Shown: piece by piece, positions 37,783-53,829 of the stretch
How the letters are laid out: every line of letters begins with the position of its first letter
Position numbering within the stretch: the first letter of the stretch is position 1
Assembly: GCA_021815445.1 (NCBI GenBank)
Contig: JAKAGM010000001.1
Span: 299,527 to 363,526 of the forward strand
From: a bacterium
Lineage (GTDB): Bacteria > Patescibacteriota > Patescibacteriia > UBA10025
Length of the DNA: 64,000 nt
Reading direction: 5' to 3'
Notes under the pieces: generated by a model
What the model was told of the DNA's origin: nothing
The model's input: only the letters and a program-made list of their open reading frames with translations
The model's database searches: none
Made by a program: the position numbers and the translations under genes

Positions 37783-37811
37783 CCGCGGTAATCTCGTTTT
37801 CCTGATTTTCA

Positions 37812-37841: not shown

Positions 37842-37853
37842 AAATAAAAAAAC

Positions 37854-37874: not shown

Positions 37875-37890
37875 GACATGCCTCGCGGTT

Positions 37891-38955
37891 TTACAACAGC
37901 GAGAGAATAAACCGTGCAGACCTTTCCGCATTTTGCCCATCGAGGCGAAAATTGGCCACCTGAGCTGCCGTGAGACCCAGATCCCCTTTTAGCGCCAGTT
38001 TGAGCTGGGAACACAGTTCCTCATAGCCTGCAGCCATTGTCGAGCATCCGAGGGAAACAACCGGCGGGACATCCATAGAGTTCCCGGTCGACGCCCTGAA
38101 TAGAGAGAGCCCGGCATCAGGATAGAGAACGGAGATGGTCTGCTTCCTGATGGTGGCCGACTCTACGAGAATCGTCGAGTACATCGAGAGTATGACGTCG
38201 CTCGCTGCCAGAAGCTGCTGGGTGGAAAAGCCCGACCCGTCGACAAGAATTCCGCCCGAAAAACATTTGATGGCCTCTTGCCATATTGGCAGTTCATCAG
38301 GGGCATTGTTGCCCATTGCCGGGTGCGCCCGGGGGATCAGATATACCGAGTTGTCGCCGAGCTCATTGAGCGCTCGCACAATCTCGGCAAGCACCGATCC
38401 GCTCCCTTGCCACTGTCCGCCGTACAGTACGATGCGTCCTTGTGGCGGGATGCCTAGCTGCAATCGAACCTTTGACGCTTCTGCCGCAACATCGTACCCC
38501 GCGTACTTGTCGAGTGCGGGGAACCCCGTTGCCCGAATATTCTCGGAAGGAAAGCCAGGCCAGGCCTCCTCAACCAATCTGGCGCCGATGCCATCATTCA
38601 CGATGATGTAATCAGGCCTATAGTCAGGTGCCCGCCAAGCATCATACAGGTACCCTGCCCAGTAGTCCTGGAGCGCAACCACTTGAGTTGATTTGCGAAG
38701 ATAAAGGATAAGGTCCCTCCCGACTCCGCCTTGTGAGCACATGCTGGTTACCAGTGTTTTTGGATAATCCATGGCAAGCAGCGTTTCGACGGATTGAGCT
38801 TGGACAAATACTTCGCCCGATCCGGCTAATATTTCCACAGCCTTACCGTTCGCAAAAAGCTCGACCTGCGCGCCATGAGACCTTATGGCTTTCACCACAG
38901 GAACTATCCCGGCAGTTCCCCCCGTGTCTTTGCACACACACCAAATGTCCGCCAA
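37891..38955 (-). CDS. GT-B fold glycosyltransferase-like protein (GT1/GT28-like) in GC-rich insert
   Basis: 354 aa. N-terminal GGTAG G-loop. C-domain IVLYGGQWQGSGS ... ASDVILSMYSTILVESATIRKQTISVLYPDAG resembles the GT1/MurG-type C-terminal nucleotide-sugar binding region. Confidence 0.5.
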   Translation of the reverse strand: MADIWCVCKDTGGTAGIVPVVKAIRSHGAQVELFANGKAVEILAGSGEVFVQAQSVETLLAMDYPKTLVTSMCSQGGVGRDLILYLRKSTQVVALQDYWAGYLYDAWRAPDYRPDYIIVNDGIGARLVEEAWPGFPSENIRATGFPALDKYAGYDVAAEASKVRLQLGIPPQGRIVLYGGQWQGSGSVLAEIVRALNELGDNSVYLIPRAHPAMGNNAPDELPIWQEAIKCFSGGILVDGSGFSTQQLLAASDVILSMYSTILVESATIRKQTISVLYPDAGLSLFRASTGNSMDVPPVVSLGCSTMAAGYEELCSQLKLALKGDLGLTAAQVANFRLDGQNAERSARFILSLL

Positions 38956-39203
38956 TCTCCACCTCCCTTTAATTGGGTCCGTTTACGGTTTGGAAATGAA
39001 CATGCCTTCAAAAGTGCAAACTGCCAGGAAAAAAAAGATTTTATTGATCTGACGGAACATTATAACTTATTAATTATCATCTGTCAAGGCCGTTCCTACC
39101 ACATTGATGCTGTGATATAGCTGTTATTTCCTTGCATTTTCAGCATTCTGGAAAGCACCCTTTCCAAATAGGACCGTTTCTGTTATGATGGGAACTGAAG
39201 CTT

Positions 39204-39572
39204 ATGGTAAAAAAATGGCTTATTTACTGTTTAGCTGGAGTTTGCGTACTCGTGCTTATTGCGCTCGTCCTGACCATTTGGTTGCCTGTCTTCGTCGCAT
39301 TTAGGTCGGTTTTCGGCTTCGTCTGTCTTTTTTTCTTACCAGGGTACATCTGGAGTTACGTTTTTTGGCGAGGGGGCGAAATAGACGGTACTGAACGCTG
39401 GATACTTGGTATTATGCTCTCTGTTGTTTCTGTCCCTCTGCTGGTTTTTTTTCTCAATAAGATCGGAATAAAAATAAACATCGTTAATGTATTACTGGAA
39501 AGTTTTGTACTTATGCTCTCCTCGTTAATTATCATTTACTACAAAAAAATTAAATCTAAACCATCGCTATGA
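39204..39572 (+). CDS. Small 4-TM membrane protein, hypothetical
   Basis: 122 aa, four hydrophobic helices. 4-nt overlap with the downstream epimerase gene. Tatgat -10-like element at 39183-39188. Confidence 0.45.
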   Translation: MVKKWLIYCLAGVCVLVLIALVLTIWLPVFVAFRSVFGFVCLFFLPGYIWSYVFWRGGEIDGTERWILGIMLSVVSVPLLVFFLNKIGIKINIVNVLLESFVLMLSSLIIIYYKKIKSKPSL

Positions 39573-40552
39573 GGACAGAGAGATTCGCACTTGTATGCGG
39601 CGCCGGAGGTTTTATTGGCAGTCACCTTGTTAGTCGGCTCAAATCTGAAGGATTTTGGGTTCGCGGCGTTGATATAAAAAAACCTGAATTTAGTGAATCG
39701 ACCGCTGACGAGTTTGTCATCGGTGACCTTCGCAACCCGCTCGTGTGCCAAAAAGTGCTCGACAGGCCATTTGATGAAGTGTACCAGCTAGCTGCTGATA
39801 TGGGTGGCGCCGGATACATCTTTACAAAGGATCATGATGCTGATGTCATGCACAATTCAGCAACTGTCAATCTGAATATGGTCTTTTACGGCCAAAAAGC
39901 GGGGGTAAAAAAAATATTCTTCTCCTCTTCAGCCTGCATTTACGCTGAATACAACCAAATGGATCCGGATAACCCAAAGTGCTCGGAGGATTCCGCGTAT
40001 CCTGCCATGCCGGATAGCGAGTATGGTTGGGAAAAGCTCTTCAGTGAACGATTATACCTTTCGTTCAGGAGAAATTACGGCCTCAATGCAAAAATCGCCC
40101 GGTTTCACAATGTTTACGGTCCGGAAGGAGCATGGGACGGCGGCAGAGAAAAAGCTCCGGCAGCTTTGTGTCGTAAAGTTGCCCAGGCAACTGATGGCGG
40201 TGAAATAGAGATGTGGGGTGACGGAAAACAGACGCGGTCTTTCCTTTACATTGATCAATGCCTGGACGGGGTGAGAAGACTTATGGATTCGCCCGATTTC
40301 AATGGACCGGTGAATATCGGTTCCGAGGAAATGGTCACTATCAACCAGCTTGCGGAAATGATTATGGAGATTGCAGGAAAAAAACTGCGCATACACCATA
40401 TCCCCGGACCGCTGGGTGTAAAGGGTCGGAAATCGGACAATAAGCTTATTAGAGAGAAATTGCGGTGGGAGCCTACAGAGCCCCTATCCATAGGGTTGGG
40501 AAAAACATACCGTTGGATTGAACGTCAGATTGTTAATCAAAAGGGATCATAA
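39569..40552 (+). CDS. NAD-dependent nucleotide-sugar epimerase/dehydratase (extended SDR)
   Basis: 327 aa. CGAGGFIGSHLVSRL Rossmann motif and YxxxK region (YGWEKL). Specific sugar substrate not assignable. Confidence 0.8.
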   Translation: MRTERFALVCGAGGFIGSHLVSRLKSEGFWVRGVDIKKPEFSESTADEFVIGDLRNPLVCQKVLDRPFDEVYQLAADMGGAGYIFTKDHDADVMHNSATVNLNMVFYGQKAGVKKIFFSSSACIYAEYNQMDPDNPKCSEDSAYPAMPDSEYGWEKLFSERLYLSFRRNYGLNAKIARFHNVYGPEGAWDGGREKAPAALCRKVAQATDGGEIEMWGDGKQTRSFLYIDQCLDGVRRLMDSPDFNGPVNIGSEEMVTINQLAEMIMEIAGKKLRIHHIPGPLGVKGRKSDNKLIREKLRWEPTEPLSIGLGKTYRWIERQIVNQKGS

Positions 40553-40566
40553 TTCAGCACCCCCTA

Positions 40567-41397
40567 ATGGCCTATCAAGAAGTAACTACGATCAAACCAA
40601 AAAAGGGTTGGGTGGGGGTTAATGTAAAAGAACTATGGCGCTATCGAGAGCTTTTTTTTATTTTTGTATGGCGTGATATTAAAATACGATACAAGCAGAC
40701 GGCAATAGGCGTACTCTGGGCTATCCTGCAGCCATTTTTGTTAATGGTAGTGTTTTCAATCTTTTTTGGCTCATTCGCCAAAATGCCGTCAAACGGGGTC
40801 CCCTACCCTATTTTCGTTTTTTCAGGTCTGCTTTTTTGGAATTATTTTTCTGTTTCACTGACGAATGCAAGCGACTCATTAGTCAGTAATGAGAATATTT
40901 TAAAAAAAATATATTTCCCCCGTTTAATCCTTCCCCTGTCGCCCACGATGACACCTCTCGTTGATTTTGCAATCGCCTTCATTGTGCTCATCGGAATGCT
41001 TTTTTATTATCATTTTACGCCCACGCTCATCGGCATCGTCATATTGCCGCTGCTCCTTTTTACGTCCTTTCTCTCCGCGTCGGGTTTGGGAATGTTTTTA
41101 GCCGCCATAAACGTCAGATACCGCGACATAAGATATGCCCTCCCCTTTTTTATTCAAAGCCTTTTGTTTGTCACTCCGGTAATTTATCCGACAAGCATTG
41201 TTTCTTCGCAATACCAATGGATCCTCAAATTGAACCCAATGACCGGAATCATCGAGGCGGCTAGGGCCGGCATTGTTGGCGGCAAACAAATTGATTTCAC
41301 GTTACTGGCAATTTCTGGGATTATCGCCGCAGCGATTTTTTTGTTTGGAATATTTTATTTTAGGAAAACTGAGCGGATATTCGCTGATGTCGCCTAA
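40567..41397 (+). CDS. wzm: ABC-2 type polysaccharide export permease (Wzm/TagG-like)
   Basis: 276 aa, 6 TM. ABC-2 family pattern (IKIRYKQTAIGVLWAILQPFL). Precedes the ATPase. Confidence 0.85.
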   Translation: MAYQEVTTIKPKKGWVGVNVKELWRYRELFFIFVWRDIKIRYKQTAIGVLWAILQPFLLMVVFSIFFGSFAKMPSNGVPYPIFVFSGLLFWNYFSVSLTNASDSLVSNENILKKIYFPRLILPLSPTMTPLVDFAIAFIVLIGMLFYYHFTPTLIGIVILPLLLFTSFLSASGLGMFLAAINVRYRDIRYALPFFIQSLLFVTPVIYPTSIVSSQYQWILKLNPMTGIIEAARAGIVGGKQIDFTLLAISGIIAAAIFLFGIFYFRKTERIFADVA

Positions 41398-42676
41398 TAC
41401 TATGCAGGACGAAATCATAAAAGTAAACAACATTTCTAAATCCTACACCATTACGCATCGCGAATCTTACGAAACCATACGCGATAAAGTAACTGAACTT
41501 GCGAAAAAGCCGTTTCAAATGTTTGCTGGCCGCACACATACTGAAAAAGAAAAGTTCTGGGCACTGAGAGATGTCCAATTTTCAGTCAAACAGGGCGAGC
41601 GCTTGGGAATCATAGGAAGAAATGGCGCCGGCAAAAGCACACTCTTAAAGATTTTGTCCCAGATTACGTATCCGACCGCCGGCGATGTAATGTTGCGGGG
41701 ACGGGTAGCTAGTCTGCTCGAGGTCGGTACTGGCTTCCACCCCGAGCTGACCGGCAGAGAAAATATATTCCTGAATGGAGCCATATTAGGGATGAAACAA
41801 TCGGAAATAAGAAAAAAATTTGATGAAATAGTCGCGTTTGCTGAGATTGAACAATTTCTTGATACACCCGTTAAACGATATTCATCAGGGATGTACGTGA
41901 GGCTCGCTTTTGCGGTTGCCGCACATTTGGAGCCTGAAATACTAATCATTGACGAAGTCTTAGCCGTCGGCGACACGCAATTCCAGAAAAAATGCCTAGG
42001 TAAAATGGAGGATGTGGCAAAAGGAGGCAGGACAATACTTTTTGTCAGCCACAACATGGGTTCGATACATAAATTGTGCGATTCTTGCATATGGCTTGAC
42101 CGGGGGAAAGTTGTCGCGGCCGGTGATCCGCAAAATGTCATCATGCAGTATTTGGACTACCAAAGTAAGGGACGCGCAATTTTTACGCAGGAACATCAAT
42201 CAAAAAAAAAGATGAACTTAAGAAAAGTATTCCTGTTGGACGGAAGAGCTCAAATCGGCCGTTTAGTCAACTTCGATGACGATGTTTTGATAGCTATTGA
42301 GTATGAGATTAATCAAGAAGTGAATAACTGCCTCGTCTGGTTTACGCTCTCATCAGGCGACGGTATTGAGATTCTCTGCAGTACGGACTATGATCTCCAC
42401 CCCGAGCTCAAAGGCCCAAGATCCAAAGGTTATTACCGTACAACTGCTGTGATTCCAAAAAAGGTCCTCAGTCCAGGCAGCTATAATATCTTAGTCGGAA
42501 TTAATTCGAATAATTTACCCAGTGAAACTTTTGATCGGATTGAGACTATTTCATTTGATGTGGTAGACAACGGCAGTTCACCTAAAGCCATGTTTGGGGA
42601 AATGTCGCGAAGTGGATTTTTACAGCCTTTTTTGGACTGGCAAACGCAAAAAGTTTCTGAAAAAACGGATTCTTAA
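41387..42676 (+). CDS. wzt: ABC transporter ATPase Wzt/TagH-like with C-terminal glycan-binding extension
   Basis: Walker A GRNGAGKST, signature YSSGMYVRLAF, Walker B ILIIDE. ~170-aa C-terminal beta-rich extension, as in O-antigen-binding Wzt. Start chosen at the in-frame ATG 41387 (the ORF-track start 41273 overlaps wzm extensively). Confidence 0.85.
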   Translation: MSPNTMQDEIIKVNNISKSYTITHRESYETIRDKVTELAKKPFQMFAGRTHTEKEKFWALRDVQFSVKQGERLGIIGRNGAGKSTLLKILSQITYPTAGDVMLRGRVASLLEVGTGFHPELTGRENIFLNGAILGMKQSEIRKKFDEIVAFAEIEQFLDTPVKRYSSGMYVRLAFAVAAHLEPEILIIDEVLAVGDTQFQKKCLGKMEDVAKGGRTILFVSHNMGSIHKLCDSCIWLDRGKVVAAGDPQNVIMQYLDYQSKGRAIFTQEHQSKKKMNLRKVFLLDGRAQIGRLVNFDDDVLIAIEYEINQEVNNCLVWFTLSSGDGIEILCSTDYDLHPELKGPRSKGYYRTTAVIPKKVLSPGSYNILVGINSNNLPSETFDRIETISFDVVDNGSSPKAMFGEMSRSGFLQPFLDWQTQKVSEKTDS

Positions 42677-42710
42677 TAATACTACTATCGGCTCAAAACT
42701 AAAAAACACT

Positions 42711-43427
42711 ATGATACTGAATAAGAAAATACTTACAATCATACCTGCTCGCGGAGGATCTAAGCGTTTGCCGGGAAAAAATATCAAGCTTTTGGCCGGC
42801 AAACCGATGATTGCATATGCGATCGAGGCTGCCAGAAAATCGAAATATACTGACAATATAATTGTTACGACGGATGACCAAAAAATTGCTGATATCGCCG
42901 CGAAATATGGAGCTGATGTCCCGTTTATACGGCCGACCGAGTTGGCCACTGACGAAGCCAAGAGCATCGACGTTATCATCCACGCCGTAGATTTCTTCGA
43001 GACACAGAAGGGCTTTTTGATAGATTTGATAATCTTGATTCAACCGACCTCGCCGCTCGTTATTTCGACGGATGTTGACGCGGTCATTGAAAAAATACTC
43101 CAAGCAGAGACAAAAAGTTGTGCAACTGTGTTTAAGGTTACACAGAGACCCGAGTGGATGTACGTAATCCACCAGGGTGAATCGAAGCCCTTTCTGACTG
43201 CGCATAACACTGACCTGCCGAGTCAGGAACTGAAAGAACTCTATTGTTTAAATGGCGCCGTCTATGCCATGCGTCGTGATACGGTCATGAAAGACAGGTT
43301 GGTAATAGACAATAAAAGCTTCTCAACTGTCATTATACCCAGGGAAAGATCGGTGGACGTGGACGAGCTGTATGACTTTGAGCTAGCTGAAGCTATTCTA
43401 AAAAATCATGCCAACAAGACAAGATAA
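42711..43427 (+). CDS. CMP-nonulosonic acid synthetase (acylneuraminate cytidylyltransferase family; NeuA/LegF-like)
   Basis: MILNKKILTIIPARGGSKRLPGKNIKLLAGKPMIAYAIEAA is the CMP-NeuAc/CMP-Kdo synthetase family N-terminus. Start taken at 42711 rather than ORF-track 42594. Confidence 0.85.
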   Translation: MILNKKILTIIPARGGSKRLPGKNIKLLAGKPMIAYAIEAARKSKYTDNIIVTTDDQKIADIAAKYGADVPFIRPTELATDEAKSIDVIIHAVDFFETQKGFLIDLIILIQPTSPLVISTDVDAVIEKILQAETKSCATVFKVTQRPEWMYVIHQGESKPFLTAHNTDLPSQELKELYCLNGAVYAMRRDTVMKDRLVIDNKSFSTVIIPRERSVDVDELYDFELAEAILKNHANKTR

Positions 43428-44481
43428 CCTAAACATTCAGATCGGTGATAAACGGATCAGCTATCATGATGAGGTTTTTGTTATTGCCGAGGCAGGGGTA
43501 AATCATAACGGACGTCTTAATCTGGCATTGAAGCTTGTCGACGCCGCTGCGCAAGCCGGTGCTCATGCGGTAAAATTTCAGACTTTCAAAGCCCACCAGG
43601 TTGTGGTAAAAAAAACGCCGATGGCTGAGTATCAAAAAAAGAACATTGCACGTAAACAAAGCCAACTGGCTATGTTAAAAAAAGTTGAATTACAAGAAGC
43701 ATTCTACGACAAAATAATTAAGCACTGCAAAAGAAGGAAAATTATTTTTCTTTCCACACCGCACGGCGGATTTGAGAGCATTGATTTTCTTCATTCCCTC
43801 GACGTGCCTGCGTATAAATTTGGCTCAGGAGATTTGAATAACACGCCTGTGCTCCAATACGCTGCGCGATTCGGAAAACCCATGATACTCGGTACCGGAA
43901 TGTCCACACTGCAAGAGGTAAAAAACGCAATCGCGGTCATCAGAAAAACCGGAAACAATAAAATAATCGTATTGCATGCAACGACCAATTACCCATGCCC
44001 TCCCCAAGAAGTCAACTTACAATCAATGGTAACAATGATGCACGCTGTACGTTGCCTCGTGGGCTATTCTGACCATACGTTAGGGATTGAGACGTCATCA
44101 GCTGCTGTCGCACTAAAGGCATGCATGATCGAGAAACACTTCACGTTAAACAAAAAATTGCCCGGTCCGGATCATAAATGTTCAGCTGAACCGAAGGAGC
44201 TTCAAACTTTAATAGACCGCATACGATACATTCACACGATATTGGGTTCACCAGTTAAGCAGCCGAACCCTAGCGAACTGAGAATGTTAAAGACTGTTCG
44301 AAAAAGCATTGTCACGTTATCTGAAATAAAAAAAGATGAGTTTTTTACACCAAAAAACTTAGGGATTAAGAGGCCTGGGACGGGTCTGGATCCAAAATAT
44401 TATTACAGGATCATCGGCAAAAAAGCATTACAGAACATTCGCCCAGATGTTCTGCTGACAAAAAAACATTATGCAGAGTAA
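43408..44481 (+). CDS. neuB: Nonulosonic acid synthase (NeuB/LegI family, C-terminal SAF domain)
   Basis: 357 aa. VIAEAGVNHNG...AGAHAVKFQTFKA is the NeuB TIM-barrel signature. SAF-like C-terminus. Confidence 0.9.
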   Translation: MPTRQDNLNIQIGDKRISYHDEVFVIAEAGVNHNGRLNLALKLVDAAAQAGAHAVKFQTFKAHQVVVKKTPMAEYQKKNIARKQSQLAMLKKVELQEAFYDKIIKHCKRRKIIFLSTPHGGFESIDFLHSLDVPAYKFGSGDLNNTPVLQYAARFGKPMILGTGMSTLQEVKNAIAVIRKTGNNKIIVLHATTNYPCPPQEVNLQSMVTMMHAVRCLVGYSDHTLGIETSSAAVALKACMIEKHFTLNKKLPGPDHKCSAEPKELQTLIDRIRYIHTILGSPVKQPNPSELRMLKTVRKSIVTLSEIKKDEFFTPKNLGIKRPGTGLDPKYYYRIIGKKALQNIRPDVLLTKKHYAE

Positions 44482-45628
44482 AAAGAAAAAAGTAGCATAC
44501 ATTACCGGTAATCGCGCCGATTTCGGATTAATGACACCGGTATTGCTGGCGATGAGGAAAAGCAAAAAGTTGTCACTTACGGTATATGCAACCGGCATGC
44601 ATCTCATGCCGGAATTTGGGCGCACTCTGAAAGAAGTAAAAAAGATATTTCCTGACGTGAAAGTGATCAGCGCCATTTTCAAATCAGACGGCAATAAAGG
44701 GATGGCAAGTTTTTCCTCAGCATACATTAAACGTCTGGTGGAGATGTTTACCAAAGACCGACCGGACTTTGTTATTACGTTGGGTGATCGAGTTGAGATG
44801 CTCTGTACGGCGCTTACCTGTCTTTACATGCATATCCCGAGCGGTCAGCTGCACGGCGGCGAAAAGACTTCCACAGTTGATGAAATTGCGCGCCATACAA
44901 TTACCAAACTTTCCAATCTGCATTTCCCGGCAACGCGTGTATCAGCCCAGAGAATCGAAAAAATGGGCGAAGAAAAGTGGCGCATACACATAGTTGGCGC
45001 CCCTGCGCTTGATATGATATTACACGGCAATTTGCCGAGCAAAAGGGAGGTTTACCGGTTTCTCGATATCAGGCCGTCGCTTCCATATATCCTAGTTACC
45101 CAGCATCCCGTTAGCCAAGAATGGACTGAATCCGGGAGACAAATGAGAGAAACGCTGCGCGCCGTCAAACACTTCGGCATACCTGTTGTAGTTACATACC
45201 CCAACGCAGATGCCGGTGGAAGAGTAATGATAAGGGAAATTAATAAAGAGGAGGGAAACTCATTATTCAGGATCAAGCCGAGCATCCCTTATGCATATTT
45301 CCTGGCAATTGAAAAATATGCGGCAGTCTGGGTTGGGAACAGCAGCGGGGCAATGATTGAGTCATCCTCTTTCCATACTCCGGTCGTCAATGTGGGCGAC
45401 CGTCAAAAAGGCAGAGAACGAGGTTTGAATGTTATTGACAGCCCTCACATACATACACGAATAGAAAAAGCCATCCGGAAATCACTGTCTGACAAAAAAT
45501 ATCGTAAACGACTTCAAAAGATTAAGAACCCGTGGGGTGACGGAAAAACTGGGATGAGGGTCGTAAAAATTCTAGAAAAAACTGATTTCAATACACAATT
45601 GCTCAACAAGCATTTAACTTATGACTAA
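44471..45628 (+). CDS. neuC: Hydrolysing UDP/GDP-N-acetylhexosamine 2-epimerase (NeuC/LegG-like)
   Basis: 385 aa. VAYITGNRADFGLMTPVL ... HGGE ... HPVSQEW ... VGNSSG matches the NeuC-type hydrolysing 2-epimerase pattern. Confidence 0.85.
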   Translation: MQSKKKKVAYITGNRADFGLMTPVLLAMRKSKKLSLTVYATGMHLMPEFGRTLKEVKKIFPDVKVISAIFKSDGNKGMASFSSAYIKRLVEMFTKDRPDFVITLGDRVEMLCTALTCLYMHIPSGQLHGGEKTSTVDEIARHTITKLSNLHFPATRVSAQRIEKMGEEKWRIHIVGAPALDMILHGNLPSKREVYRFLDIRPSLPYILVTQHPVSQEWTESGRQMRETLRAVKHFGIPVVVTYPNADAGGRVMIREINKEEGNSLFRIKPSIPYAYFLAIEKYAAVWVGNSSGAMIESSSFHTPVVNVGDRQKGRERGLNVIDSPHIHTRIEKAIRKSLSDKKYRKRLQKIKNPWGDGKTGMRVVKILEKTDFNTQLLNKHLTYD

Positions 45629-46226
45629 AAAAGTAATCATCGTAGGTGCCGGAGAAAATGGATATGTTATAGTGAACATATTGAAAAGAAAGTACAGTAT
45701 CGCCGGTTTTCTTGATGATAGAAAGAGAGGAAAACACATTCTTGGTAAAATTAATCAGTTCTCTAAATATAAAAAAAGTCATCTTTTTTTTGTAAATATT
45801 GGGAATAACAAGGTGAGAAAGAATATTTATCTGCTGATGAAGTCCGCCGGAGCAAAATTCGTTAATGCGATTCATGTCTTGTCTTTTGTAGAAAAAACTG
45901 CTAAAATTGGTGAAAATGTTTTTATCGGAGCTATGACCTACATAAATGTAAACGCCTCCATTGGCGACAATTCTTTCATTAATAACGGCTGCATTATCGA
46001 GCACGATAATGAGATTTCCGCGCACACACATGTTGCACCTGGCGTGATAACGGGAGGACGTGTCGTCATTGGTACGGGTTCGTTTATAGGACTTGGCAGC
46101 CGCATTAATGACCACACTAAGATAGGAAATAATGTAACCATCGGATCTGGTTCAGTCGTCATCGGCCCGATTGCGAGCAATACCACTGCGGTGGGTATTC
46201 CCGCTCATATAATTAAAAAATTATGA
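45621..46226 (+). CDS. Left-handed beta-helix sugar N-acetyltransferase (NeuD/PglD/LegH-like)
   Basis: 201 aa. N-terminal Rossmann-like IIVGAGENG and C-terminal hexapeptide repeats (IGDNSFINNGCIIEHDN..., IGTGSFIGLGSRIN...). Confidence 0.8.
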   Translation: MTKKVIIVGAGENGYVIVNILKRKYSIAGFLDDRKRGKHILGKINQFSKYKKSHLFFVNIGNNKVRKNIYLLMKSAGAKFVNAIHVLSFVEKTAKIGENVFIGAMTYINVNASIGDNSFINNGCIIEHDNEISAHTHVAPGVITGGRVVIGTGSFIGLGSRINDHTKIGNNVTIGSGSVVIGPIASNTTAVGIPAHIIKKL

Positions 46227-47335
46227 AAAATTTTCCCGTTGCACGACCTTTTATTGATCGTAAAGACATTGATGGAGTAGTCGGCGTGCTGAAGTCCGGA
46301 TTGCTTTCTTTCGGGCCCAAGTATCTCCAATTTGAAAAACAAATTGCGAAATATACTGGGACCAGGTACGCATGCGCCGTTTCGAATGGCACCTGCGGCC
46401 TGCATTTGGCGGTCAAAGCTCTTAACCTTCACCCGGGCGATGAAGTAATCACGTCACCATTTTCCTTCATATCCTCTTCAAACTGCCTTCTCTTTGAGGG
46501 TGTCGTGCCAAGATTTATTGATATCCAGGAAAATACGTTTAACATGGATCCGAAATATCTCGATAAAAGCGTAACAAAAAAAACCAAAGCAATCCTCGCG
46601 GTACATATATTCGGACAGTCAGCTGATATGACTGAAATTATGGCATTTGCTAGACGGCATCATTTGCCGGTCATCGAGGATTCTTGTGAAAGCCTGGGAT
46701 CAAGATATATGGGAAAAATGACCGGGTCTATAGGTGATGTAGGTGTGTACGCCTTTTATCCCAATAAACAAATGACTACGGGCGAAGGAGGGATTGTTGT
46801 AACAAAATCAAAAAAAATTCGTGACATTTGCGTGAGTTTAAGAAACCAGGGCCGGAACAACCGCAATGATTGGCTGGTTCATGAAAGAGTCGGATACAAT
46901 TACCGGATGGATGAAATGAGCGCATCGTTAGGAATCACCCAACTTCACAAATTAAATTGGATGATAAATGAAAAAAGGAAGATCGCTTCATGGTACTCAT
47001 CTGAATTGGATGGACATAGATCGATCCGCGTACCGCGCATCGGCGTTAATCGAACGCATTCTTGGTTTGTGTACGTGATCCGTGTTACTAACGGCTCTCG
47101 CGATAAGATTATAAAAAAACTTGAACGAGAAAATATTTTCACGAAACCCTATCTTCCGGTGATACATCTCCAGCCATTTATGAAACAAATGTTCCATTAC
47201 AAAAAGGGGGCTTTTCCGATCGCGGAAAAAATCTCTTCTCAAACACTCGCGCTCCCCTTTTACATCGGGTTGACACGAGAAGATGTCGCATATATATCAC
47301 GTAAATTAATCTCTGTGATTAAGAATTATGATTAA
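46223..47335 (+). CDS. DegT/DnrJ/EryC1-type PLP aminotransferase (LegC/PglE-like)
   Basis: 370 aa. GPKYLQFEKQIAKYTGTRYACAVSNGTCGLHLA and a conserved lysine region. Typical nucleotide-sugar 4-aminotransferase. Confidence 0.9.
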   Translation: MKNFPVARPFIDRKDIDGVVGVLKSGLLSFGPKYLQFEKQIAKYTGTRYACAVSNGTCGLHLAVKALNLHPGDEVITSPFSFISSSNCLLFEGVVPRFIDIQENTFNMDPKYLDKSVTKKTKAILAVHIFGQSADMTEIMAFARRHHLPVIEDSCESLGSRYMGKMTGSIGDVGVYAFYPNKQMTTGEGGIVVTKSKKIRDICVSLRNQGRNNRNDWLVHERVGYNYRMDEMSASLGITQLHKLNWMINEKRKIASWYSSELDGHRSIRVPRIGVNRTHSWFVYVIRVTNGSRDKIIKKLERENIFTKPYLPVIHLQPFMKQMFHYKKGAFPIAEKISSQTLALPFYIGLTREDVAYISRKLISVIKNYD

Positions 47336-48323
47336 ATATTTTCAGAATAAAATAATACTGGTAACTGGAGGGACTGGTTCAATAGGCTCCGAGCTGGTCA
47401 AACAGCTTATTACATATAAGCCGAAACAGTTACGTATTTTCTCGCGCGACGAAAGCAAACAGTACTACCTTATGGAGCAAATTGACCATCCGAGTAACGT
47501 CAGGTTTTTTATCGGCGATGTGAGGGACCAGGAACGTCTGGATTTGGCATTCCAAAATGTAGACGTGGTATTCCACGCCGCAGCGATGAAGCACGTTCCC
47601 TTGTGCGAGTACAACCCATTTGAAGCGGTAAAAACCAATATCGTAGGATCTCAAAATGTCATTAACGCCGCTCTAAAACATAATGTTGACAAGGTTGTCG
47701 CGATTTCAACCGATAAAGCCGCAAACCCGAGTAATGTCATGGGAACCTCAAAGCTCATGATGGAAAAACTTATAATAAATGCAAATTTTTACCGCGGCTG
47801 GGCTAGAACAAAATTTTCTTGCGTACGCTTCGGGAATGTCGCCTGGGCAAGAGGGTCAGTTCTTCCGCTATGGAAAAAACAGGCAGAAAGAGGGAATTCC
47901 ATTAAAATTACCAACCATGACATGACACGTTTTTTTATGTCTATTCCTCAGGCCAGGGATTTAGTTTTAAAAACTGCAAGCTTGGCATACGGCGGGGAGA
48001 TTTTCATTTTAAAGATGTCATCAATAAGAATCATCGATTTGGCAAAGATTTTTGTCAAAAAATATTATCCCGATAGGAAAATAAGAATCGTCAAAACAGG
48101 AAATCGACCCGGAGAAAAGATGCACGAAGATTTGTACGTTCCCAATATTACACCGAAGGCAATATTTGAAAATGACGAAATTCTCATAATAATTCCCGAG
48201 CTTGAAATATATGACCTTAAACAGCCCGAAAGAGAGTACAAAGGCTTTAGGAAAAAGCTCAGTTATGCGGATTATTGTTCCGATAAATCAATCAATGTAA
48301 GTAGGGTGAGAAATGTTATATAA
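47328..48323 (+). CDS. UDP/GDP-GlcNAc 4,6-dehydratase, short FlaA1/PseB/LegB type
   Basis: 331 aa. IILVTGGTGSIGSELVKQL...AAMKHVPLCEYNP...TDKAANPSNVMGTSK is the short-form polysaccharide biosynthesis (CapD-like) dehydratase pattern. Confidence 0.85.
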   Translation: MIKYFQNKIILVTGGTGSIGSELVKQLITYKPKQLRIFSRDESKQYYLMEQIDHPSNVRFFIGDVRDQERLDLAFQNVDVVFHAAAMKHVPLCEYNPFEAVKTNIVGSQNVINAALKHNVDKVVAISTDKAANPSNVMGTSKLMMEKLIINANFYRGWARTKFSCVRFGNVAWARGSVLPLWKKQAERGNSIKITNHDMTRFFMSIPQARDLVLKTASLAYGGEIFILKMSSIRIIDLAKIFVKKYYPDRKIRIVKTGNRPGEKMHEDLYVPNITPKAIFENDEILIIIPELEIYDLKQPEREYKGFRKKLSYADYCSDKSINVSRVRNVI

Positions 48324-48339
48324 ATTTAATTATCGGTAA

Positions 48340-49209
48340 ATGAAAAAAGGGGTCAACATTAGGATAATCCCGAGGCTTGACATTAAGGGTCCCAACCTGG
48401 TCAAAGGAATTCATTTGGAAGGTTTACGCGTATTGGGTAAACCGGAGGATTTCGCCAAGCGTTACTATGAAATGGGCGCCGACGAACTTCTCTATGTCGA
48501 CGTCGTCGCAAGTTTGTACAACAGAAACAGTTTGCACGACATCATCTCTAGAACTGCTAAGGAGATATTCATACCCATGACAGTTGGCGGAGGCATACGT
48601 ACAATTGATGACATAAAATCTGTATTGCGGGCGGGTGCGGACAAGGTTGCCCTAAATACCGCAGCAATAAAGAATCCTGAGATCATACGGGAAGCCGCAA
48701 CCATCTTTGGCTCGTCAACAGTCACCATCGCAATAGAAGCGATAAAACAGCCAAACGGCGACTACCTCGCCTACACTGATAACGGTCGTGAATTCACTGG
48801 GGTGGAAGTGCTCGACTGGGCAAAAAAAATTGAATCACTCGGGGCCGGAGAAATCTTGCTCACATCGATAGACAGGGAGGGTACGGGATTGGGTTTCGAT
48901 AAAGAATTAACTAAGCGCATTGCTGCTGCGGTTTCGATACCTGTAGTAGCATGCGGAGGTCCCGGAAAACTTGAGCATATTTATGAGGTTATACATGAAT
49001 CACAGGCTGATGCGGTGGCGATAGCCTCGATGCTGCACTATGATCTCATTGGCCAGGGTAACGCCTCAGCGAAGTATGAAGGCGAAGGAAATACGGAATT
49101 CCTAAAGAAAAAAACAGGCACATTCGGCAAAATTACCAACACGAACATTTCCGCTATAAAAAAATATTTATTTGAACACGACATTCCTTGTCGGTACAGA
49201 AATGAATAA
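48340..49209 (+). CDS. HisF-like cyclase subunit (WbuY-type, glycan amidotransfer)
   Basis: 289 aa. IIPRLDIKGPNLVKG...ADELLYVDV...PMTVGGGIRT is the imidazole-glycerol-phosphate synthase HisF fold. Located in the glycan locus rather than a his operon. Confidence 0.85.
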   Translation: MKKGVNIRIIPRLDIKGPNLVKGIHLEGLRVLGKPEDFAKRYYEMGADELLYVDVVASLYNRNSLHDIISRTAKEIFIPMTVGGGIRTIDDIKSVLRAGADKVALNTAAIKNPEIIREAATIFGSSTVTIAIEAIKQPNGDYLAYTDNGREFTGVEVLDWAKKIESLGAGEILLTSIDREGTGLGFDKELTKRIAAAVSIPVVACGGPGKLEHIYEVIHESQADAVAIASMLHYDLIGQGNASAKYEGEGNTEFLKKKTGTFGKITNTNISAIKKYLFEHDIPCRYRNE

Positions 49210-49885
49210 AACAAACCCAAGGATAGCAATTATTGATTATAAATTGAGCAACCTTTTCAGCGTCAAACATGCATGCGAGTTCGTCGGCATGAATGCTGAA
49301 ATAACATCCTCGCGCGATGATGTTTTAAATGCAGACGGTGCGATTCTGCCAGGTGTAGGGGCGTTCGGCGATGCAATGAAAAATTTAGAAAATTTAAACC
49401 TTGTCAGCGCAATTAAAGAGTTCGTCAAATCCGGAAAACCGCTCATGGGCATTTGCCTCGGACTTCAGTTGCTTTTTTCTGAAAGCGAAGAATTTGGCCC
49501 TCATAAAGGCCTCGGCATTATCCCCGGTAAAGTTGTAAAATTTCCTTCCATAAATTCGGATGGGCGCGTCATAAAGGTTCCTCAAATAGGGTGGAATACA
49601 ATTCATACGCCGGACTCAGATCCTCTCAAATGGCAGAATACTCCCCTCTTAGGAATTGCCGACGGCGAATTTATGTATTTTGTTCATTCCTACTATATTA
49701 TCCCTGACAATACGAGGGATGTGCTGACGACTACGACATACGACACAATCACGTATGCGTCAAGCATACTGCATGATAATGTCATTGCGTTCCAATTCCA
49801 TCCCGAAAAAAGCGGGATAGAGGGCGTCAAAATATATAAGAACTGGGCCTTACACCTAAAAAAATTAAATAACCCGAATATATGA
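49172..49885 (+). CDS. HisH-like class I glutamine amidotransferase (WbuX-type)
   Basis: RIAIIDYKLSNLFSV ... GICLGLQLL (catalytic Cys) ... QFHPEKS. An alternative start at 49202 (MNKTNP) avoids the overlap with the HisF-like gene. Confidence 0.85.
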   Translation: MNTTFLVGTEMNKTNPRIAIIDYKLSNLFSVKHACEFVGMNAEITSSRDDVLNADGAILPGVGAFGDAMKNLENLNLVSAIKEFVKSGKPLMGICLGLQLLFSESEEFGPHKGLGIIPGKVVKFPSINSDGRVIKVPQIGWNTIHTPDSDPLKWQNTPLLGIADGEFMYFVHSYYIIPDNTRDVLTTTTYDTITYASSILHDNVIAFQFHPEKSGIEGVKIYKNWALHLKKLNNPNI

Positions 49886-51102
49886 CTTTAAAGACCATGT
49901 ATGATCTCCCAGAAAAAGTGATTTTTTGCAAACGGTGTGTTATTTCCAATCAACGACCGGCTTCAACCCCGGAGTTCAGGCACACAAAAACTGCAAAAAA
50001 AGTTACGATTAATATAGATTCACAGGGAGTGTGTGACGCATGCCGGCAGGCTGAGGTTAAGGAAAAAATTGACTGGAGCAAACGTGAAAAGGAACTCGTC
50101 GTTTTGCTTGATAAATACCGTAAAAATGACGGAAGTTATGATTGCATCGTGCCCGGAAGTGGCGGCAAGGACAGCGCCTTTCAGGCGCACACTTTAAAAT
50201 ACAAATATGGCATGCATCCATTAACGGTAACTTGGCCTCCGATCCTCTACACTGACTATGGTTATCAAAATTTTAAAAATTGGATTGAAATTGGCGGTTT
50301 TGATAATATCACATTCAAGCAAAACGGACGGGTGATGAAACTGCTTACGAGACTGGCAATCGAAAACCTTTTTCACCCTTTTCAGACATTCATTCTTGGG
50401 CAGAAAAATCTCGGACCAAAAATCGCTTTAAAGTACAAAATTCCCCTGATTTTTTACGGAGAAAATGAAGCGGAATACGGAAACCCAATTGCCGAAAACG
50501 CAACATCCCTTCGCGATAAATCTTACTATGCAATGGAAAATCTTGACGAAGTATACCTCGGGGGCGTTTCGATTCCGGAACTTATAAAAAAATATAACAT
50601 CCAGCTAGCGGACCTTATGGCTTTTCTCCCCCCACGGGCAGAAGATTTAGACTCCTCAAAAATTGAAGTGCACTATTTAGGATATTACCTCAAATGGACG
50701 CCGCAAGAAGTTTATTATTACGCGGTTGAAAATACCGGTTTTAAGGCACGCCCTTTTCGCACACAGGGCACCTATAGCAAATATAATAGCATCGACGATA
50801 AAATCGACGATCTGCATTATTACACGACTCACATCAAATTCGGGATTGGTCGGGCGACATACGACGCTTCGCAGGAAATAAGGAATAGACACCTAACACG
50901 CGAAGACGGCAAAGCGCTCGTCAAACGTTTTGACGGCGAATTTCCAGATCGATATTTTGACGAAATAATGAACTATATAGGCATGGAGCCGAAACATTTC
51001 TTCGAATTATGTGATAAATTCAGACCGTCTCATTTGTGGAAAAAAATTGATGGTGAGTGGAAATTGCGTCACACTGTGAATAGTGACGGCACAGACGATT
51101 AA
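49882..51102 (+). CDS. N-acetyl sugar amidotransferase, PP-loop ATPase (PseA/WbuZ/WbpG-like)
   Basis: 406 aa. N-terminal Cys cluster (CKRC...C..C) and PP-loop VPGSGGKDS. Family partner of the HisH/HisF-like pair in acetamidino-sugar formation. Confidence 0.8.
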   Translation: MTLKTMYDLPEKVIFCKRCVISNQRPASTPEFRHTKTAKKVTINIDSQGVCDACRQAEVKEKIDWSKREKELVVLLDKYRKNDGSYDCIVPGSGGKDSAFQAHTLKYKYGMHPLTVTWPPILYTDYGYQNFKNWIEIGGFDNITFKQNGRVMKLLTRLAIENLFHPFQTFILGQKNLGPKIALKYKIPLIFYGENEAEYGNPIAENATSLRDKSYYAMENLDEVYLGGVSIPELIKKYNIQLADLMAFLPPRAEDLDSSKIEVHYLGYYLKWTPQEVYYYAVENTGFKARPFRTQGTYSKYNSIDDKIDDLHYYTTHIKFGIGRATYDASQEIRNRHLTREDGKALVKRFDGEFPDRYFDEIMNYIGMEPKHFFELCDKFRPSHLWKKIDGEWKLRHTVNSDGTDD

Positions 51103-52093
51103 GCAAATAATACTCACCCATATGAAAACAGCAGTCATTATCGGTGCAGGACAGCTTGGAAGCAGACATCTTCAAGCGCTTAAATCAGTGACAACTGCCC
51201 TTGAGATTTATGTTATCGATCCTTCAGATAAGTCCCTCAAAGTCGCGAAAGAACGATACGATACTATTGACTCCAAACAACCTAAGCAGCGAGTGACATT
51301 TGCTAATTCTTTACCGGACTCTTTGGATATAGAAATAGCAATTGTAGCTACAAATGCGGATGTTCGAAGAACTGTTGTTGAAAAAATGCTGCGTACAGCC
51401 AAAGTAAGACATCTCATATTGGAAAAACTACTGTTCAGCAAACCGGAAGATTATCCTGCGGTAGCAAAGCTGCTAAGAGAAAAAAACGTTGCGTGCTGGG
51501 TAAATTGCAGCATGAGAACTATGCCTTTTTATCAAACCCTTCAAAAACACTTTAAAGACCTACCGCTCACATACACGGTGACAGGCAGTCAATTCGGGTT
51601 AGTGACTAACGCAATTCATTACCTTGACCATGTGGCTTTCCTTACTGGGTGTCCTGACTTTACTATTTCGACTCAATATTTAAATCCCCGACCCATTGAG
51701 AGTAAACGACCAGGATTTTTGGAACTTAACGGTACGCTGCTTGCCGAGTACCAAAATGGCAGTATCGCTGCGCTTACATGCTACTCTGATGGCAATGCCC
51801 CGGTTGTAGTAGAGATCTGCAACCAAGACTACCGCTGTATATCACGGGAATCGGAGAAACTAGCATGGATTTCGAACCAAAAACAAAACTGGCAGTGGAG
51901 CGAGGTACCCTCAAACTTACCCTACCAAAGCGCAATGACTACCGATGTGGTTGAAGAATTGTTAAAAAAGGGGACGTGTTCCTTGACTCCTTACGCTGAA
52001 TCGATGTCCATCCACCTTAACCTGTTGCCAAAATTACAGGAATTCCTCGATAGAAAATCCACCAAGCAATTTGATCATTATCCATTTACGTAA
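51083..52093 (+). CDS. NAD(P)-binding oxidoreductase (Gfo/Idh/MocA-like)
   Basis: KTAVIIGAGQLGSRHLQAL Rossmann motif. An alternative start at 51122 avoids a 20-nt overlap. Confidence 0.55.
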   Translation: MTAQTIKQIILTHMKTAVIIGAGQLGSRHLQALKSVTTALEIYVIDPSDKSLKVAKERYDTIDSKQPKQRVTFANSLPDSLDIEIAIVATNADVRRTVVEKMLRTAKVRHLILEKLLFSKPEDYPAVAKLLREKNVACWVNCSMRTMPFYQTLQKHFKDLPLTYTVTGSQFGLVTNAIHYLDHVAFLTGCPDFTISTQYLNPRPIESKRPGFLELNGTLLAEYQNGSIAALTCYSDGNAPVVVEICNQDYRCISRESEKLAWISNQKQNWQWSEVPSNLPYQSAMTTDVVEELLKKGTCSLTPYAESMSIHLNLLPKLQEFLDRKSTKQFDHYPFT

Positions 52094-53077
52094 ATGAACA
52101 GCGCATCCCATCCAAAAGTTCTACTCATAGGTACCGGTCCAATAGGTATCGAATACGCAAAAATACTCCAGGCGTTGCGGAAAGACTTTTTAGTTGTGGG
52201 TCGTAGTGAATCATCGTGTAAAAATTTTTTCAGTCAAACAGGAGTTACTGCCCAAATGGGGGGAATACAGGAATGGTTCAGCGTGCACCCGAATATACAT
52301 AGTGACCAGATAGAAAAGGTTATCATCGCTGTCAGCGAAAATGAACTCGGCATTGTGACGCTTACCTGCCTGGAACATGGATGTAATAACATCCTGGTAG
52401 AGAAGCCGGGGGGATTAAATATTGAGGAAATTAAAAAAGTAGAAAGTACATCCAAAAAAAAACATGCTCTCGTTTTTGTTGGGTATAACCGTCGTCAGTA
52501 TGCTTCAGTGAAAATGTGCAAAAAATTGCTTGCAGACGACGGAGGCGTGACGTCTTTTAATTTTGAATTTACTGAATGGGGACACGTCATCCAAGATCTA
52601 AAAAAAGCTGCAGGCGTAAAAGAACAATGGTTTCTGCATAATTCTACGCATGTGATTGACCTTGCATTTTTTCTGGGCGGAAATCCAAAAAAAATAGTGA
52701 CATTTACAAAAGGTTCGTTACCTTGGCATCCTTCGGGGTCGATCTTTGCGGGTGCTGGTGAGTCTTCTTCAGGGGCATTATTCTCTTATCAAGCAAATTG
52801 GTCGGCGCCTGGTCGGTGGGGCGTAGAGGTATTAACATCAAAACATAGATTCATTTTACGTCCTTTGGAAAAACTTCAGATGCAAAAAATCGGATCCGTC
52901 GAGATTTCGGAAGTCCCGTTGGAAGATCGGTACGACAAGGAGTTTAAACCCGGTTTTTACGAGCAAACCAATGCTTTTCTGACTGAAAACTACGACCTTC
53001 TGTGTTCAATTGAAGAGCAAAAGAGAAATTGTGCCACTTATGAAAAAATCTCAGGCAACACCCACAGTTTGGTATGA
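52094..53077 (+). CDS. NAD(P)-binding oxidoreductase (Gfo/Idh/MocA-like), second copy
   Basis: 327 aa. KVLLIGTGPIGIEYAKIL Rossmann motif. Same architecture as the preceding gene but a distinct sequence. Confidence 0.55.
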   Translation: MNSASHPKVLLIGTGPIGIEYAKILQALRKDFLVVGRSESSCKNFFSQTGVTAQMGGIQEWFSVHPNIHSDQIEKVIIAVSENELGIVTLTCLEHGCNNILVEKPGGLNIEEIKKVESTSKKKHALVFVGYNRRQYASVKMCKKLLADDGGVTSFNFEFTEWGHVIQDLKKAAGVKEQWFLHNSTHVIDLAFFLGGNPKKIVTFTKGSLPWHPSGSIFAGAGESSSGALFSYQANWSAPGRWGVEVLTSKHRFILRPLEKLQMQKIGSVEISEVPLEDRYDKEFKPGFYEQTNAFLTENYDLLCSIEEQKRNCATYEKISGNTHSLV

Positions 53078-53829
53078 TGGCAGCTGATCTTGGTTGTGGA
53101 GTAAATAAAACGAGGGATACCGTGGGCATCGACCGATTCCCGCTTGAGGGTGTCGATGTTGTTGTCGACCTCAATAAATTCCCATACCCCTTTGCCGATA
53201 ACTCGTTTGACGTCTTCTACCTCAATGACATCATCGAACATTTACCCGACACCATTGGAGTTATGGAGGAATTATACAGATTATGTAAACCAAACGCTCA
53301 CATCTACATACGAGTTATAAATTGGAACAGTAAATTAAACGCCGAGGACCCGACGCATGTAAAAGCATTCACTGAACATACATTTGATTTCTTTGGAAAA
53401 TACGCATTACGTTCCTACTATAGTAAGGCGAGATTTGAAGTTGTATCCTGTGAGTACCAATTCAACGCAAAAGTGGAAAAATACATAAAAAACCGTCGCC
53501 TCATGAAATTCCTAGGTACTTATTTGAATAACGTTTTAGAGGGTCTCAATTTTGACCTGCGGTGTGTAAAAAATACAACATCCCCCAGCGAACATGAACC
53601 TCGTCAGGATCGGGATATTTTTTCGCTTATCAGGTGTCCGCATTGCATCGGTGATAAAGAAACAAAGGATAACTCCAGTTTAACTATTTACAACACCGAC
53701 TGGCTTCTGTGCAGCAACCCTCATTGCAAAAGAAAATACCCGATAGTAAATGGGACCCCCCTGCTCACCTTAAAGGATGGTAATAAACGGATATCCGTAC
53801 AGCCGGAATCACTTGCAACAATAACCTAA
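53074..53829 (+). CDS. Class I SAM-dependent methyltransferase with C-terminal Trm112-like zinc ribbon
   Basis: DLGCGVNKT motif I, DVFYLNDIIEHL motif II-III. C-terminal CPHC...CSNPHCKRKYPIVNGTPLL resembles the Trm112 zinc-ribbon (YPI.dGIP.L) element. Confidence 0.8.
   Translation: MMAADLGCGVNKTRDTVGIDRFPLEGVDVVVDLNKFPYPFADNSFDVFYLNDIIEHLPDTIGVMEELYRLCKPNAHIYIRVINWNSKLNAEDPTHVKAFTEHTFDFFGKYALRSYYSKARFEVVSCEYQFNAKVEKYIKNRRLMKFLGTYLNNVLEGLNFDLRCVKNTTSPSEHEPRQDRDIFSLIRCPHCIGDKETKDNSSLTIYNTDWLLCSNPHCKRKYPIVNGTPLLTLKDGNKRISVQPESLATIT

Follow-up and report, generated by a model that had tools for sequence, protein, structure and literature searches.

Six consecutive genes in the 64,000-nucleotide stretch of DNA analyzed here (the window: GenBank assembly GCA_021815445.1, contig JAKAGM010000001.1, positions 299,527 to 363,526, forward strand) probably encode the core of a UDP-linked legionaminic-acid-type CMP-nonulosonate pathway in a bacterium of the candidate phyla radiation (CPR). 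Based on sequence comparisons, we give this reading a probability of a little over 70%. Every enzyme of the cassette is intact and assigned to a family, the genes are packed in an operon-like manner, and the locus is conserved in both near and distant CPR genomes. The assignment to the legionaminic (Leg) type is made because the genes for the dehydratase, aminotransferase and N-acetyltransferase are translationally coupled to those for the NeuC-type epimerase, the NeuB-type synthase and the cytidylyltransferase; because neither PseG nor PseH, the hydrolase and acetyltransferase of the pseudaminic (Pse) route, was found among the locus ORFs scanned; because, among solved structures, NeuC is nearest to an N,N'-diacetylbacillosamine (diNAcBac) 2-epimerase and NeuB is nearest to SpsE; and because the synteny of the cassette is conserved in other CPR genomes.

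According to the listing of open reading frames (ORFs), six complete ORFs on the + strand occupy positions 42711-48323 exactly, and successive ORFs overlap by 20, 11, 8, 4 and 8 nt. Families were called with Pfam and NCBIfam profile scans using curated cut-offs, and the nearest structures were found by PDB sequence search. Along the strand, the genes encode a CMP-nonulosonate synthetase of the NeuA/LegF/PseF cytidylyltransferase family (42711-43427; CTP_transf_3, PF02348, E 1.3e-31), a NeuB/LegI-type nonulosonate synthase with a C-terminal SAF domain (43408-44481; PF03102, E 1.6e-86, and PF08666), a hydrolyzing UDP-sugar 2-epimerase of the NeuC/LegG type (44471-45628; TIGR03568), a PglD/NeuD-family hexapeptide N-acetyltransferase (45621-46226; PglD_N and Hexapep, TIGR03570), a pyridoxal-phosphate-dependent sugar 4-aminotransferase of the DegT family (46223-47335; PF01041, E 1.6e-112) and a short soluble UDP-GlcNAc 4,6-dehydratase of 331 residues (47328-48323; Polysacc_synt_2, PF02719, E 7e-103). 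The original prediction, made from the letters alone, of six consecutive overlapping pathway genes is thus borne out, with all six enzyme families found and all genes intact. Its preference for the legionaminic over the pseudaminic route also holds: the epimerase is of the NeuC type, the acetyltransferase is a PglD/NeuD hexapeptide protein, and no member of the PseG or GNAT PseH families was found among the ORFs of at least 150 residues scanned in 39-64 kb.

The epimerase scored 361.7 against the NeuC model TIGR03568, above the cut-off of 235.9, but only 104.3 against the wecB model, below the cut-off of 210.15; the enzyme is accordingly hydrolyzing, as predicted, and not of the non-hydrolyzing WecB type. 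Its best PDB match is 5ZLR, the hydrolyzing GDP/UDP-N,N'-diacetylbacillosamine 2-epimerase of Acinetobacter baumannii (195.5 bits), and WecB-type chains reached at most 63 bits. For the acetyltransferase, the score against TIGR03570 was 178.9, above the cut-off of 160.8; this model spans NeuD-type and PglB/VioB-type sugar acetyltransferases. The closest structures of this protein are PerB (4EA7, 89.9 bits) and PglD (78 bits), and in the alignment its His128 falls at the PerB residue changed from His to Asn in 4EAA. In the aminotransferase, the PLP-lysine motif AFYPNK...GEGG begins at residue 177. The cytidylyltransferase has PseF as its best NCBIfam match (179.8 bits, under the cut-off of 205.7), and its closest PDB chains are the NeuA/CMP-Neu5Ac synthetases 9FTB and 6IFD (~112 bits).

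The synthase scored 425.5 against TIGR03569 (NeuB_NnaB), above the cut-off of 399.65, and 278 against the PseI model, below the cut-off of 340.25, and the SAF domain was found at 26 bits (cut-off 21). The assignment as a NeuB-type synthase is therefore upheld; no NCBIfam model specific to LegI matched. Among solved structures, Bacillus subtilis SpsE (201.7 bits) ranks before Neisseria meningitidis NeuB (183.6 bits) and Campylobacter jejuni PseI (165.7 bits). Pairwise identities to the window NeuB are 37% for SpsE, 33.5% for N. meningitidis NeuB (NmNeuB) and 29% for Helicobacter PseI, the most distant sequence. In a neighbor-joining tree of 48 sequences, with a single Leg reference (SpsE) and a single Neu reference (NmNeuB) transcribed from PDB alignments, the window NeuB falls within a clade of CPR sequences. 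At the published diagnostic positions, it reads G-S-G-D, with Asp in place of the catalytic Glu134 of NmNeuB; a Glu134 to Asp change has been reported for archaeal and eukaryotic synthases (PMC8208679). SpsE carries Tyr where NmNeuB and the window NeuB carry the second Gly of this pattern, and Pse enzymes have Phe at about that position (PMC7371886), with a numbering that does not match the alignment exactly.

For the dehydratase, the best PDB scores are those of Helicobacter pylori FlaA1/PseB (257 bits), Bacillus thuringiensis Pen (253 bits), CapE (224 bits) and PglF (175 bits). The protein is 44.7% identical to FlaA1, scored 332.9 against the PseB model (cut-off 407.75) and reached only 74 bits against the LegB model (cut-off 475). 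Its description as 'FlaA1-type' fits in size and overall similarity but not at the active site, where the tyrosine typical of short-chain dehydrogenases/reductases (SDRs) is replaced: STDK from residue 127 is followed by M138-x3-K142. Six aligned CPR homologs likewise have Met or Leu at the Tyr position, whereas FlaA1 and Pen have Tyr. Judged from this alignment, the enzyme would not be FlaA1-like in catalysis. We considered Met-for-Tyr as a decisive marker of a C5-retaining dehydratase and rejected it: CapE, a 5-epimerizing enzyme, also carries Met in the alignment, so that Met138 leaves retention at C5 unproven. In B. subtilis, the corresponding pair M146/K150 was shown to be necessary in SpsM, a short soluble UDP-GlcNAc 4,6-dehydratase that catalyzes the first step of the UDP-linked legionaminic pathway and is complemented by PglF, not by PseB (PMC7439481).

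The substrates and stereochemistry of the pathway, its tailoring order, transferases and acceptor are inferred from these assignments, as follows. The reactions would run opposite to the gene order; the original prediction had listed the genes in biochemical order, and along the strand they come in reverse. After the dehydratase, the DegT aminotransferase would install the C4 amine, and the PglD/NeuD acetyltransferase would yield UDP-diNAcBac. The NeuC-type enzyme would then remove UDP and epimerize C2, giving 2,4-diacetamido-2,4,6-trideoxy-mannose, which NeuB would condense with phosphoenolpyruvate to a 5,7-diacetamido-3,5,7,9-tetradeoxy-nonulosonate. The cytidylyltransferase would finally form the CMP-sugar, and the products of the next genes in the array would probably tailor the sugar.

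To place the cassette among its relatives, GTDB species representatives were scanned. The nearest NeuB relatives (50-64% identity) come from metagenome-assembled genomes (MAGs) of Falkowbacteria, Yanofskybacteria, Minisyncoccia, Roizmanbacteria, Staskawiczbacteria and Paceibacterota. The same DegT and Polysacc_synt_2 genes accompany NeuB and NeuC in six of the seven long CPR loci, where WbuXYZ is often present too. A protein search listed 120 clusters at 57-69% NeuB identity, and all lineage-named ones are Patescibacteria. Furthermore, three related genomes from independent samples (L045, L046 and L047) agree with the window in gene order from DUF1616 through GT2, with NeuB 64-69% identical; L046 is collinear with the whole array at ~70% nucleotide identity, and L047 and the more distant L045 keep its gene order. 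The locus is therefore inherited, conserved in its lineage and common in CPR, not a singular acquisition. The framing of such a cassette as a rarity, with sialic-acid-like sugars known mostly from pathogens and a few environmental lineages, therefore does not stand. In the literature searched by full text, no paper on nonulosonate (legionaminic, pseudaminic or sialic) synthesis in CPR/Patescibacteria was found, and a large NeuB survey makes no mention of these CPR lineages (PMC8208679); databases already annotate such CPR genes automatically.

Two observations made along the way concern other NeuB genes. A second, distant NeuB paralog (30-31% identity) lies ~8 kb upstream of the main cassette in the CPR loci L005 (1712-2866) and L041 (1973-2845), and some CPR genomes may thus have a pair of nonulosonate pathways. 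In addition, a 5.7-kb contig labeled 'uncultured Gammaproteobacteria' (L003, CAYPRN010000054.1) encodes a NeuB that is sister to that of the Falkowbacteria locus L002, together with CPR-like WbuX, WbuY and a cytidylyltransferase; it is probably a mis-binned CPR contig.

Several findings weigh against the legionaminic-type reading. The DegT aminotransferase lies under the cut-offs of both the PseC (293 vs 423.5) and LegC (268.5 vs 420) models, and its best PDB match is a perosamine synthase (235 bits), with PglE and PseC at ~145. Overall, the dehydratase resembles the inverting PseB more (257 bits) than it does PglF (175 bits), and it shares Met at the Tyr position with CapE, not only with SpsM. 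In the NeuB tree, the references for Leg and Neu both branch outside the CPR clade, so this neighbor-joining tree with two references does not part Leg from Neu. The Tyr expected at Nm position 184 in Leg synthases is Thr in the window NeuB, which matches none of the Neu, Leg and Pse patterns (PMC7371886), and is Ala in SpsE. We rejected the residue-184 rule as a Leg test for the window NeuB: it is not transferable, because SpsE, itself an enzyme of a Leg pathway, has Ala. Finally, neither the initiating transferase nor the acceptor was identified within the window.

Some of these points would also suit a 5,7-diamino nonulosonate other than legionaminic acid, which we regard as unlikely. Such a product could be 8-epi- or 4-epi-Leg, formed via two tandem Gfo/Idh/MocA-type oxidoreductases (51122-52093 and 52094-53077, +; PF01408) and an SDR epimerase/reductase (39569-40552, +; PF01370), or, should C5 be inverted by the PseB-like dehydratase, a new stereoisomer. 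The overall likeness of the dehydratase to PseB and Pen fits inversion, but the catalytic Tyr of PseB is absent, and no PseG occurs among the locus ORFs scanned; to our knowledge, it is PseG, rather than a NeuC-type enzyme, that serves in the characterized Pse-type routes. The aminotransferase, fitting neither the PseC nor the LegC model, is compatible with another isomer. Both Gfo/Idh/MocA genes and the SDR gene are conserved in the locus, and the pair is kept beside the cassette in L007, L008 and L045-L047; its products possibly carry out a redox or epimerizing modification of the sugar. This role is proposed by analogy with A. baumannii, where ElaA, a Gfo/Idh/MocA enzyme that oxidizes C8 of CMP-Leg5,7Ac2 during 8-epimerization, acts with the SDR ElaC to epimerize C8 (PMC13656337). 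The first of the two window proteins, however, matched no solved chain in the PDB at E<=0.01.

Less probable still is a locus with two products, in which NeuC, NeuB and the cytidylyltransferase would make CMP-Neu5Ac from UDP-GlcNAc, with the NeuD-type protein as an O-acetyltransferase, while the dehydratase and aminotransferase would supply a bacillosamine/QuiNAc4N-type sugar to the same glycan. This division agrees with the passing of a model that NCBI names N-acetylneuraminate synthase, with the breadth of TIGR03570, which covers NeuD-type as well as PglB/VioB-type acetyltransferases, with a tree that leaves Leg and Neu unseparated and with the small gap between SpsE and NmNeuB in PDB score (202 vs 184 bits). 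It is at odds with the translational coupling of all six genes, with the persistence of the dehydratase and aminotransferase beside NeuB and NeuC in distant CPR lineages, and with the nearest solved NeuC relative, which is a diNAcBac epimerase. Moreover, the scanned locus ORFs include no PglC-type phosphoglycosyltransferase, the enzyme that would consume diNAcBac directly and place a bacillosamine-type sugar at the reducing end. The amidotransferase WbuX, encoded downstream, requires an N-acetylated amino sugar, a need that a di-N-acetylated substrate fits better, and three close NeuB homologs are named diacetyllegionaminate synthase by JGI, through automatic annotation.

A recently acquired or decaying island without a role in the organism is strongly disfavored: the GC content lies ~5 points under that of the housekeeping region, but no ORF is broken and profile coverage is full-length throughout, the low GC spans the whole 25-kb locus and further, the locus is collinear in the three related genomes, and NeuB groups with other CPR sequences rather than with a foreign donor.

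The six genes make up just the core of a surface-glycan locus of 25 kb, which takes up about 2.8% of the ~0.88-Mb genome. They lie midway in an array of 20 co-directional genes (39204-59153); in the 19 co-directional genes at 40567-59153, each gap is at most 34 nt, or the genes overlap, and the two genes at the array head, from 39204, overlap each other. The array begins with a DUF1616 membrane protein (39204-39572, +; PF07760), followed by the SDR described above, whose best NCBIfam match is GDP-fucose-synthase-like (103 bits, far under the cut-off); both genes are syntenic in L045-L047. Next come a Wzm permease (40567-41397, +; PF01061) and a Wzt ATPase with a Wzt_C carbohydrate-binding domain (41387-42676, +; PF00005 and PF14524, 38.3 bits vs 30.4), and this pair also lies upstream of the cassette in L045-L047.

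Directly downstream of the cassette lies a predicted acetamidino module. It comprises a HisF-like, WbuZ-like cyclase subunit (48340-49209, +; PF00977), a HisH-like, WbuY-like glutamine amidotransferase subunit (49202-49885, +, with the start at 49202 taken from the public gene call; PF00117, TIGR01855 195.9 over 105.4) and an N-acetyl sugar amidotransferase of the WbuX family (49882-51102, +; TIGR03573, 363.4 over 203.2). The HisF-like protein scored just below the cut-off of the WbuZ model TIGR03572 (272.4 vs 299.7) and 203 against the AglZ/HisF2 acetamidino family. Its gene is kept beside the cassette in L006-L008, L010, L041 and L045-L047, and WbuX is 58-78% identical in the CPR loci L006, L008, L010 and L041. 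The CPR lineage is usually without amino-acid biosynthesis. Since the HisF- and HisH-like genes (48340-49885) adjoin WbuX and score near the WbuZ and AglZ acetamidino families, metabolic reconstructions should not take them for histidine biosynthesis genes. In the proposed scheme, the amidotransferase would turn one N-acetyl group into an acetamidino group, with ammonia from glutamine supplied via the HisH/HisF-like pair.

Further candidates for tailoring are the two Gfo/Idh/MocA enzymes, a SAM-dependent methyltransferase (53074-53829, +; Methyltransf_11/23), whose gene has the same position in L045-L047, and a second hexapeptide acetyltransferase of the xenobiotic/O-acetyltransferase type at the end of the array (58482-59153, +; PF00132). 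The best NCBIfam matches of this last protein are TIGR03308 and the CatB/Vat O-acetyltransferases, all under their cut-offs.

Between the methyltransferase and the second acetyltransferase, the array encodes putative transferases. The first is a GT2-family glycosyltransferase (53840-54790, +; PF00535, E 9e-6). It is followed by a GT-B glycosyltransferase of an uncharacterized family (54802-56244, +), a candidate CMP-nonulosonate transferase, and by its paralog (56243-57595, +; 30% identity, E 3e-77). These GT-B paralogs (54802-57595; candidate TRANSFERASES) belong to a family of ~120 proteins, all named members of which are annotated 'hypothetical', and which is also found in Bacteroidota, Myxococcales, Flavobacteriales and Pseudomonadota MAGs. 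In a 63-sequence alignment, H348-P349 is invariant, as are P230, W231, G266, P376, S386, A392, P398 and D459; in the paralog at 56243-57595, the HP motif lies within VCVHPS. Against NF046086, the model of the BFO_1060 transferases, the two proteins reached 26.8 bits and, for 56243-57595, 38.2 bits (cut-off 200), and the D/E-D/E-G motif of the BFO_1060 family was not found in them. On these comparisons, any kinship to the BFO_1060 transferases would be remote at best. The GT-B protein had no PDB sequence match.

The next gene encodes an MptE-like/DUF115 protein, a candidate Maf-like nonulosonate transferase (57592-58473, +; PF01973, 25.2 bits, under 34.6). It carries a GNGPSL motif, with GNGPS at residue 47, and a homolog (27% identity) is encoded near the L044 cassette. 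PDB sequence search gave no match for it, and its single-sequence AF2 model was unusable (pLDDT 37). In our scheme, the GT-B and DUF115-like transferases would place the sugar onto a lipid-linked glycan at the cytoplasmic face, and Wzm/Wzt would export this glycan to the CPR cell surface. We tentatively suggest a CPR cell coated with a Legionella-like oligo- or poly-legionaminic glycan, perhaps with acetamidino, methyl and acetyl modifications, for which the HP-motif GT-B family would provide the CMP-nonulosonate transferases or polymerases and Wzm/Wzt the export; this full picture is possible rather than probable.

Convergent to the array, a glycan-assembly unit on the - strand (59184-63797) encodes a GT2 (PF00535), a polytopic membrane protein of 515 residues without a family match, a GT4 (PF00534/PF13439) and another GT2 (PF00535). 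Two large polytopic membrane proteins with a GT-C/PMT-like look, encoded at 34283-35974 (-) and 60009-61556 (-), flank the glycan locus; neither had a Pfam match, and they could be transferases that pass the glycan to an acceptor. In the related locus L045, a PMT_2 protein is encoded on the upstream flank.

The host setting agrees with the predicted small-genome, CPR-like organism: the source contig, which encodes the identical NeuB, measures 877,264 bp, with copies of up to 881 kb, and the best named relatives of SecA (60-68% identity) are Candidatus Kerfeldbacteria and 'Patescibacteria group' MAGs. Besides SecA, the window encodes mur genes, CTP synthase and a type IV pilus (T4P) assembly set (PilB/C/M/N/O, 15508-20684). 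The cassette had been described as lying next to T4P genes, but the latter are 22 kb upstream, with housekeeping genes intervening. A search for a pilin as glycosylation target with the prepilin motif G[FMYW][TS][LIM][LIVM]E gave 0 occurrences across the whole window, and a functional tie between the cassette and the T4P genes lacks support. Scanning the window against Rfam and for tRNAs gave no matches.

Windowed GC analysis confirmed a lower GC content in the six-gene block (42.4%) than in the housekeeping part at 1-31 kb (47.0%), in line with the ~5-point difference given above, but the drop is not peculiar to the six genes, because the entire glycan locus at 39.2-63.8 kb (42.3%) and the region at 31.0-36.9 kb (42.7%) are equally low. 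Between these 42-43% GC flanks lies a 2.1-kb island of 55.7% GC (36900-39000), containing a NUDIX-like ORF (36940-37782, +) and a TagB/Glyphos_transf-like GT-B (37891-38955, -; PF04464, 32.4 bits). Homologs of the latter occur within Yanofskybacteria nonulosonate loci, and those in L005, L007 and L008 (40-46% identity) lie between or beside cassette genes. The NUDIX-like and GT-B pair is also GC-raised in the relative L046 (50.4% vs 41.5%), and the Yanofskybacteria homologs of the GT-B have 45-48% GC vs 40-42% for the surrounding loci.

Elsewhere in the window, an arginase/agmatinase-family gene adjoins a PLP-dependent Orn/Arg decarboxylase gene beside secA (5248-7683, -), and the two may form a polyamine synthesis pair. 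An L,D-transpeptidase (YkuD) fused to FG-GAP repeats (902-2308, -) and a 442-residue PEGA-domain protein (26309-27637, +) are probably cell-envelope proteins.

The pathway chemistry is conventional, and the window is a new example of a known pathway that is widespread in CPR. Its occurrence in an environmental lineage is no great surprise. The prevailing view of CPR/Patescibacteria is that they live attached to host cells, and hardly anything is known of their surface chemistry; the locus offers a tractable entry to this surface biology. The conservation of a ~25-kb locus for an acidic sialic-acid-like sugar in a ~0.9-Mb genome suggests that the glycan is important to CPR. If the poly-legionaminic coat is real, it would give CPR its first described nonulosonate surface polymer system, and the glycan could plausibly bear on host attachment or phage evasion. 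If the GT-B family has the role suggested here, a new nonulosonate transferase family would be defined.

By gene function, the array resembles the Legionella pneumophila serogroup 1 O-chain locus, which has an aminotransferase, NeuD-type acetyltransferase, NeuC, NeuB, NeuA, Wzm/Wzt, methyltransferase and O-acetyltransferase (PMC3766260). Its O-chain is an N-methylated, 8-O-acetylated homopolymer of the acetamidino derivative Leg5Am7Ac, exported by Wzm/Wzt, and the methyltransferase acts on the acetimidoyl group (PMC3766260). In contrast, the L. pneumophila dehydratase (lpg0966) is encoded outside the O-chain locus, whereas the window dehydratase is the last gene of the cassette. Lipopolysaccharide should not be assumed as the acceptor, because no lipid A, core or O-antigen ligase genes appear in the window and the CPR host is ultrasmall. 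For the transferases, the comparison is with Tannerella forsythia Tanf_01245, TFUB4_00887 and BFO_1060, which share the HP motif with the window GT-B paralogs, alongside the weak BFO_1060 model scores; the T. forsythia transferases of Pse/Leg derivatives are TagB-like GT-B proteins of ~445 residues with an HP motif, encoded beside nonulosonate genes (PMC5420450).

The cassette also shares its inferred reaction logic, including a NeuC-type enzyme (LegG) and a NeuB-type enzyme (LegI), with the GDP-linked Leg pathway of C. jejuni (LegB, C, H, G, I, F), but its dehydratase is of the UDP-GlcNAc Polysacc_synt_2 family, and the LegB and LegC scores fall below the cut-offs. With the Pse pathway (PseB, C, H, G, I, F), it has in common a short PseB-like dehydratase, a DegT aminotransferase, a NeuB-family synthase and a cytidylyltransferase, and the WbuX amidotransferase family includes PseA. 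In contrast, neither the PseG hydrolase nor the GNAT PseH was found among the ORFs scanned, the catalytic Tyr of PseB is missing, and the window proteins score under the cut-offs of the PseI, PseB, PseC and PseF models. The B. subtilis sps pathway (SpsM, C, D, G, E, F) is likewise UDP-linked and starts with a short soluble Polysacc_synt_2 dehydratase. It differs in that the window NeuB, 37% identical to SpsE, falls outside the SpsE branch, and in that spsM lies at a separate locus (PMC7439481), whereas all six window genes are contiguous. At the active site of the first enzyme, M146/K150 of SpsM has its counterpart in M138/K142 of the window dehydratase.

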